A DNA stretch of 64,000 nt from Gammaproteobacteria bacterium (GTDB taxonomy: Bacteria > Pseudomonadota > Gammaproteobacteria > JAJFKG01), in NCBI GenBank assembly GCA_021156325.1, contig JAJNDI010000002.1, positions 4,757 to 68,756 of the forward strand, read 5' to 3'. The first letter of the stretch is position 1. Every line of letters begins with the position of its first letter. Below the pieces are notes generated by a model. That model ran no database searches and had not been told where the DNA came from. It saw only the letters and a list, made by a program, of their open reading frames with translations. A program made the translations under genes and the position numbers. Of the stretch, positions 3,442 to 3,511 are shown piece after piece.

Positions 3442-3511
3442 ATATCACAAGACGTATCACTTATTAGTAAAACGTTTCGCTGGGCTTTCACCTGCTCATC
3501 AGTTGTGTTAT
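3442..3511 (-). ncRNA. Hammerhead self-cleaving ribozyme, copy B (type I topology)
   Basis: Coordinates are plus-strand; the RNA is read on the minus strand. CACAA is at 3507-3503 and CUGAUGA at 3502-3496. Stem II is GCAGG 3495-3491 / CCAGC 3483-3479, with one A.A mismatch. GAA is at 3478-3476. Stem III is ACGU 3475-3472 / ACGU 3455-3452, plus inner UUAC/GUGA. C17 is at 3451. UUGUG is at 3450-3446. Confidence 0.8.

Follow-up and report, generated by a model that had tools for sequence, protein, structure and literature searches.

The window analysed here, a stretch of DNA of 64,000 nucleotides, carries near its start a minus-strand RNA element, designated B, which is very probably a functional type I hammerhead ribozyme of the HH2 type, belonging to a family found in mobile islands and plasmids of Legionella and Legionellales, transcribed towards an ssb gene and cleaving after C3451. 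B contains the hammerhead motif, has homologues whose stems covary and is linked to its downstream genes strictly on the same strand. The element and its parts are the following.

3441..3512, minus strand: hammerhead ribozyme B, type I (full covariance-model match, sequence reading, family covariation and MFE fold)
3511-3503, minus strand: stem I, 5' strand, AUAACACAA
3502-3496, minus strand: core CUGAUGA
3495-3479, minus strand: stem II and its loop, GCAGG-UGAAAGC-CCAGC, with an A.A mismatch at the third pair
3478-3476, minus strand: GAA
3475-3452, minus strand: extended stem III hairpin, ACGU-U-UUAC-UAAUAA-GUGA-U-ACGU
3451, minus strand: C17
3450-3442, minus strand: stem I, 3' strand, UUGUGAUAU

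Direct reading of the region 3300-3660 gives the minus strand of 3441-3512 as GAUAACACAA-CUGAUGA-GCAGGUGAAAGCCCAGC-GAA-ACGUUUUACUAAUAAGUGAUACGU-C-UUGUGAUAUG, in which the core elements listed in a preliminary description of this DNA (CUGAUGA, GAA and GUC) are all found again. The invariant core is complete, comprising C3 U4 G5 A6 N7 G8 A9, G12 A13 A14, the 15.1-16.1 pair (A3475-U3452) and C3451 as H17, and the pairs adjoining the core are of Watson-Crick type (G3495-C3479 as 10.1-11.1, U3450-A3503 as 1.1-2.1 and A3475-U3452 as 15.1-16.1). All the features by which Perreault et al. 2011 accepted hammerheads (C3-A9, G12-A14, A15.1-U16.1, H17 and the three core-adjacent pairs) are thus present in B. 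Its topology is that of type I, with stem I open and stems II and III closed by loops, as in the family alignment, and the MFE fold of the local 72-nt element is the three-way hammerhead junction. The cleavage site is predicted after C3451, between plus-strand positions 3451 and 3450, which is where it had been placed beforehand. Judged from these properties, B is a genuine-looking type I hammerhead self-cleaving RNA.

Two of the stems depart from the common form. Stem III consists of 4 bp, a U.U mismatch, 4 bp and a 6-nt loop, and represents a 16-nt insertion relative to the family consensus. Stem II keeps two core-proximal pairs and two distal G-C pairs around its A.A mismatch, and inspection of the fold indicates that an alternative register with a GAAA loop is possible. 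The mismatch, to which the preliminary description had drawn attention, occupies a position that is a standard pair in 79 of 82 family sequences, B being among the three exceptions. Fast cleavage by hammerheads requires a tertiary contact between loop II and stem I. In the family, the G and A of the loop II UGAAA and an A in distal stem I are conserved in at least 90% of the copies, and all are present in B, making these residues candidates for such a contact. Two small ORFs that overlap the element (3344-3559 on the plus strand and 3420-3524 on the minus strand) were treated as spurious, the region being accounted for by the RNA.

In order to place B within a family, 80 loci surrounding homologues of the window integrase were fetched by an alignment-based search and screened by a descriptor scan followed by covariance-model searches. 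These 80 Legionella loci contain 106 hammerheads, all of them co-oriented with their integrase, whereas B is antisense to the integrase of the window. Altogether 112 homologues were recovered from Legionella/Legionellales loci, including a Legionella plasmid and the two nearest metagenomic relatives (L082 and L083). When 82 distinct copies were aligned, the invariant columns proved to be exactly those of the catalytic core. Paired bases occupy 85.4% of the stem cells in these copies, compared to 31-35% if the partners are slid by 1-3 columns, a percentage biased by the minimal stems that the descriptor demanded, although the pairs that it did not require covary as well. The covariation score of the same alignment is 0.436, against 0.166 after shuffling, with none of 500 shuffles reaching the observed value. 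Double substitutions occur in 16 of the 19 stem pairs and compensatory changes in all three stems, and the outcome was repeated on the 106 model-found copies. The hammerheads of L082 and L083, the closest loci by window integrase, also have long stem III hairpins, unrelated in sequence yet still pairing.

The preliminary description had argued for a type I hammerhead from the covariation between B and a second copy, A, and had proposed to build a covariance model and search related genomes with it. That search was carried out, and the claim now stands on the firmer ground of 112 homologues, an invariant core and covarying stems. Pairing in stems II and III, the loss of which in homologues had been named as the observation that would speak against the ribozyme, is kept in the homologues recovered. 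No match to the exact sequence of B was found among representative genomes by exact-match search, nor were close relatives of the window SSB found in metagenomes.

The partner of B lies on the opposite strand, upstream of the integrase gene, and each of the two copies points at a gene of its own.

999..1059, plus strand: hammerhead ribozyme A, type I, partner of B (core start at 1009, H17 at 1049)
1681..2589, plus strand: tyrosine-recombinase-like integrase (Phage_int_SAM_2 and Integrase_1 by Pfam), downstream of copy A, a marker of the module
2741..3088, minus strand: ssb, gene of a single-strand-binding protein, 115 aa (Pfam SSB, PF00436, E 2.4e-8; ORF list; position as in relatives)

Two occurrences of the core pattern CTGATGAG-N8-30-CGAAAC are present in the window, where 0.01 would be expected. 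With a covariance model (R2) built from the 106 homologues of the 80 Legionella loci, window sequences being left out, B scores 57.3 bits (E ~6e-13) and A 65.6 bits. They are the sole R2 hits in the 64-kb window, the next best reaching about 15 bits and lacking C3. A weak model match at 39696-39780 (15-16 bits) was rejected as a hammerhead, since it has U instead of C3 and a disrupted core. Copy A stands 625 nt upstream of the Integrase_1 gene (1681-2589) and on its strand, and ssb is the first same-strand gene after B, its start being located 362 nt past the cleavage site. A and B thus face each other, A directed to the integrase (plus strand) and B to ssb (minus strand), and they are parts of two different gene modules rather than a symmetric pair round one gene.

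Also in copy A, a CUCAUCA just 5' of the core (999-1016) can pair with the UGAUGAG of the core. The hairpin so formed competes with the hammerhead fold and exceeds it in stability by 4.5 kcal/mol; transcripts beginning at the base of stem I would lack it. Three imperfect direct repeats (~GAAATAATAAATAGT) occur at 1161-1189, 1249-1278 and 1447-1477, in the ORF-free spacer between A and the integrase.

The start of the window is part of a Legionellales genomic island adjoining a tRNA gene, and the remaining features of this region are listed below.

3162..3190, minus strand: hairpin with a 12-bp stem, GUCCGCAUAGG...CCUAUGCGGAU, and a U-rich tail (terminator-like scan; alignment with 8 canonical loci)
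3964-5062, divergent from B: a 99-aa ORF followed by two CsrA-family paralogues (4257-4439 and 4802-5062)
5769-6911: tyrosine integrase adjoining the tRNA gene
6921-6993: tRNA gene

The Integrase_1-type protein has 3552 homologues, mostly from Legionella. The stretch containing the 99-aa ORF and the CsrA paralogues resembles the lvr/CsrA regulatory regions known from integrative conjugative elements of Legionella. An integrase pseudogene upstream of the integrase was considered and rejected, as the plasmid BLAST match that pointed to it falls inside the integrase gene itself (window 2098-2213).

In the Legionella loci the canonical order, on a single strand, is HH1, RAGATH-32, RAGATH-13, an integrase paralogue (268 aa), the integrase, a spacer, HH2, a leader, a 70-aa ORF, ssb and ardA. 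The RAGATH motifs owe their discovery to screens of the genes that accompany twister and hammerhead ribozymes. In locus L003 they lie between HH1 and the integrase paralogue (2366-2446 for RAGATH-32 and 2574-2668 for RAGATH-13, both Rfam gathering-score hits), and the same placement recurs in L030, L008, L022, L044, L059 and L067. Within 1.5 kb downstream of 106 of the 112 copies there is an intN, small-ORF, ssb or ardA gene, on the same strand in every one of the 106. The distance from HH2 to the small ORF is fixed at 193-262 nt (22 copies), and that from HH2 to the integrase varies, the spacer between them being as short as about 0.1 kb in some of the inspected loci and several kb long in others. 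In plasmid pPC1000_1, DUF932 is also among the genes behind HH2.

Assignment of the window copies to HH1 or HH2 was made from gene context only, and by that context B is the HH2-type element of the window island; classification by sequence identity was tried and discarded as non-discriminating, the mean identities being 0.65 and 0.66. The HH2-ssb module of the window runs opposite to the integrase, an inversion that has left B in front of ssb and on the same strand as it. Locus L082 has the same convergent layout, with ardA, and there too the hammerhead moved along with the inverted module, independently. That the module was inverted together with its ribozyme in both cases implies that the ribozyme travels with the downstream gene and not with the upstream ones.

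Further features were recorded in the two metagenomic loci and in the canonical leaders. L082, the nearest relative on a long contig, carries in its stretches 7643-8610 and 9116-10894 a module of a hammerhead, a 45-aa ORF and ArdA opposite the integrase strand and, directly adjoining it, type I-F cas1 and cas2-3. L083 has tandem hammerheads about 1.1 kb apart (726-807 and 1820-1891), each followed by small ORFs and separated by several kb from the integrase pair downstream. A leader of about 200 nt separates the HH2 cleavage site from the 70-aa ORF (L003:4542-4746, with equivalents in L028, L030, L008, L044, L049, L064, L010 and others). It contains several hairpins, the first of which (CGCCAU/AUGGCG) shows 7 double compensatory changes, and gives no Rfam gathering-score hit.

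These arrangements bear on the possibility that A and B act as DNA, that is, as inverted repeats recognised by the tyrosine recombinase they enclose, forming an invertible or excisable cassette in which the likeness to hammerheads is secondary. A and B do form an inverted repeat of 34 nt (88% complementary) with the integrase and ssb between them, and the canonical HH1 and HH2 are direct repeats bracketing both integrase genes. Against this, conservation is of the kind expected for RNA, the invariant columns being those of the catalytic core and the stems carrying compensatory substitutions, and it is the small ORF/ssb module, not the integrase, to which HH2 keeps its fixed distance. Also, the inversion breakpoints fall outside the hammerheads, in the integrase/HH2 interval and after ssb, and the tandem copies of L083 each precede a small ORF far from the integrase. 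A recombination site of this sort is, in consequence, highly improbable.

Several parts of the canonical arrangement are missing from the window. Its stretch 3440-3190 shows no similarity to the conserved HH2 leader of about 200 nt. Direct alignment and relaxed tblastn of the window spacers revealed no remnants of the integrase paralogue, the 70-aa ORF or ardA, and neither RAGATH-13 nor RAGATH-32 was detected in the window, including the 625-nt spacer after A, even at E up to 1. Given these missing family parts, the island copy in the window may be decaying. What is retained between B and ssb is the hairpin at 3190-3162, some 75 nt ahead of the start codon of ssb, whose CCGCAUA/UAUGCGG arms take the same position in the 8 canonical Legionella loci aligned, which confirms that the ssb module is homologous. 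By its form this hairpin may be an attenuator or terminator between B and ssb, so that the processed RNA may not reach ssb.

A decaying island raises the question of whether B is a relic, recently orphaned, neither transcribed nor needed, and intact since too little time has passed. The loss of the conserved leader, the 70-aa ORF and ardA from its module would agree with this, as would the absence of the integrase paralogue and RAGATH-13/32 beside copy A, the lack in both copies of the last T of the -10 and the TTG of the -35 described below, and the A.A mismatch in stem II. Yet the flanks have diverged beyond alignment while the core and all three stems of both A and B are intact, and the stem III of B, wholly unlike that of its relatives, pairs over 4+4 bp, which indicates continued selection on the RNA fold. 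The long stem III of L082 and L083 and the convergent layout of L082 further suggest a stable variant of the arrangement. We regard the relic as an unlikely explanation.

Most relatives have, upstream of both HH1 and HH2, a conserved TTG...-17-TGnTAnnnT element, the last T of which precedes stem I (5' strand) by about 7 nt. Of 105 distinct upstream regions, 77 have TGnTAnnnT at 12-16 nt before CUGAUGA, 76 of them together with TTG at -35. Within a wider band of 10-22 nt the -10 motif is present in 79 of 99 distinct regions, as compared to 1.6% of random positions in the same loci. From this pattern we infer a sigma-70-type promoter that would start transcription at the base of stem I, with the ribozyme as the first element transcribed, a position which would explain why stem I measures only 5-7 bp. 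Palindromes beside these promoters look like operator sites in the alignments of loci L003-L074: one, TATCAAAT...ATTTGATA, lies upstream of the HH2 promoter, and the HH1 promoter has another, CTTGC-GCA-GCAAG, overlapping its -35, as well as a GC-rich hairpin farther upstream.

For B, the corresponding region is as follows.

3513..3592, minus strand: candidate promoter region of B (HH2 upstream alignment, motif statistics and ORF map; assignment uncertain)

B has TGTTAAAAC 12 nt before the core, where the relatives have their extended -10. In both window copies TGnTA is kept, and the final T and the -35 TTG are missing, so that B falls outside the promoter definition used for the family. A weak TTGATT-17-TATCGT is located upstream of B at 3589-3561, and the consensus scan passed no minus-strand promoter for B. 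On the ORF map more than 3 kb upstream of B are free of minus-strand genes; B must therefore have a promoter of its own within 3513-3960 and cannot lie inside an operon.

As DNA, the stretch 3490-3625 upstream of B folds much better than its shuffles (z -4.0, a value for a single sequence). Among its hairpins are CGUUUUAA...UUAAAACG, immediately in front of the ribozyme, and CCUC...GAGG, which has a U-run and resembles a terminator. A Frpo-like single-strand promoter upstream of HH2 was also considered and set aside, the DNA folds of five canonical loci being no better than those of shuffles (z -0.9 to +1.0).

Instead of forming the 5' terminus of a transcript, B might separate the cistrons of a long one. 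Processing of long phage transcripts was proposed by Perreault et al. 2011 (PMC3088659), and in the canonical loci HH1, the integrases, HH2, ssb and ardA are co-oriented, so that read-through from HH1 could reach HH2. In the window, by comparison, the minus strand upstream of B is free of genes over the distance given above, the neighbours running the opposite way, and in the relatives a promoter is fixed directly before the ribozyme. In canonical loci the two roles may occur together, and transcripts from either promoter would there be cleaved to an identical mRNA 5' end. As the function of B itself, internal processing appears quite improbable. All three alternatives, the relic, the DNA site and internal processing, are less likely than a self-cleaving element in the leader of ssb.

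As such an element, B would work as follows. Members of the family head two modules, HH1 preceding the integrase-like gene pair and HH2 preceding the small ORF, ssb and ardA. The RNA of B would be transcribed towards ssb and self-cleave after C3451, parting the upstream ribozyme fragment from a downstream RNA that begins with a 5'-hydroxyl and retains no more of the ribozyme than the 9 nt forming the 3' strand of stem I. This downstream product would be the ssb leader, and the ssb mRNA as well unless the hairpin at 3190-3162 terminates transcription. Presumably this serves to insulate the ssb transcript at its 5' end or to remodel that end, and the loss of the triphosphate end together with promoter-proximal or read-through sequence could set mRNA stability or translation. 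A more specific version, which we put forward tentatively and consider possible rather than probable, is that the hammerhead is a promoter-coupled trimmer: with a start at the base of stem I, the transcript would shed its first 55-70 nt and the triphosphate, and the ssb/ardA or integrase mRNA would begin with a 5'-OH.

Standard annotation overlooks both copies. Rfam 15 reports neither A nor B at gathering score. In a permissive search the best score of B is 16.1 bits, against a gathering score of 48.5, and it belongs to Hammerhead_3, the wrong permutation (type III); for copy A the HH9 model gives 25.5 bits, against a gathering score of 52. Eight canonical Legionella loci likewise yielded no Rfam hammerhead family at gathering score, and since canonical copies are missed too, the failure with B reflects the coverage of the models and not the RNA. 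A standard Rfam scan is in effect blind to this branch of Legionella hammerheads. Nonetheless, the Rfam hammerheads (clan CL00010, with the type I family, RF02275 HH9 and RF00008 type III) and the RAGATH-1 hammerhead RF03152 have the core consensus and the three-way junction in common with B. The RAGATH-13 (RF02688) and RAGATH-32 (RF02922) motifs, found in the HH1-integrase leader of canonical loci, are tied to the module of copy A and not to that of B.

Self-cleaving RNAs that occupy a 5' leader, and after whose action the mRNA has a defined 5' end bearing a hydroxyl, are also known from the glmS ribozyme and the RiboJ insulators. The glmS ribozyme is ligand-dependent and belongs to another ribozyme class, and RiboJ is engineered; B differs from them in that no ligand or regulatory input is evident for it.

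The family of B is of a kind already published for Legionella. Perreault et al. 2011 (PMC3088659) described hundreds of bacterial hammerheads near integrase and prophage genes, and ardA immediately downstream of a hammerhead in three Legionella strains. B shares with those hammerheads the core, the open-stem-I topology, the host group and the integrase/ssb/ardA neighbourhood, and differs from them in preceding ssb directly, with neither small ORF nor ardA, and in its unusually long stem III (16-nt insertion) and stem II A.A mismatch. For the window itself the result is mainly the correct annotation of an element of known kind, to which it adds a divergent, apparently intact hammerhead missed by standard Rfam scanning. 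A 2019 review (PMC6765202) called the role of chromosomal bacterial hammerheads, and the reason for their gene associations, undetermined. The inverted ssb module is a natural experiment tying the ribozyme to the downstream gene, and this inversion, along with the coupling to promoters in relatives, offers a testable handle on how the ribozyme affects the 5' end, stability and translation of ssb/ardA-type genes. Promoter-coupled trimming, if true, would give chromosomal hammerheads a role in controlling mobile-element establishment genes, through stability or timing that depends on the 5' end. The genes behind HH2 (ssb, ardA and DUF932) are typical of the leading region of conjugative plasmids, where, as described in a paper that does not mention ribozymes (PMC11541004), ssb, ardA and anti-defence genes stand behind Frpo single-strand promoters.
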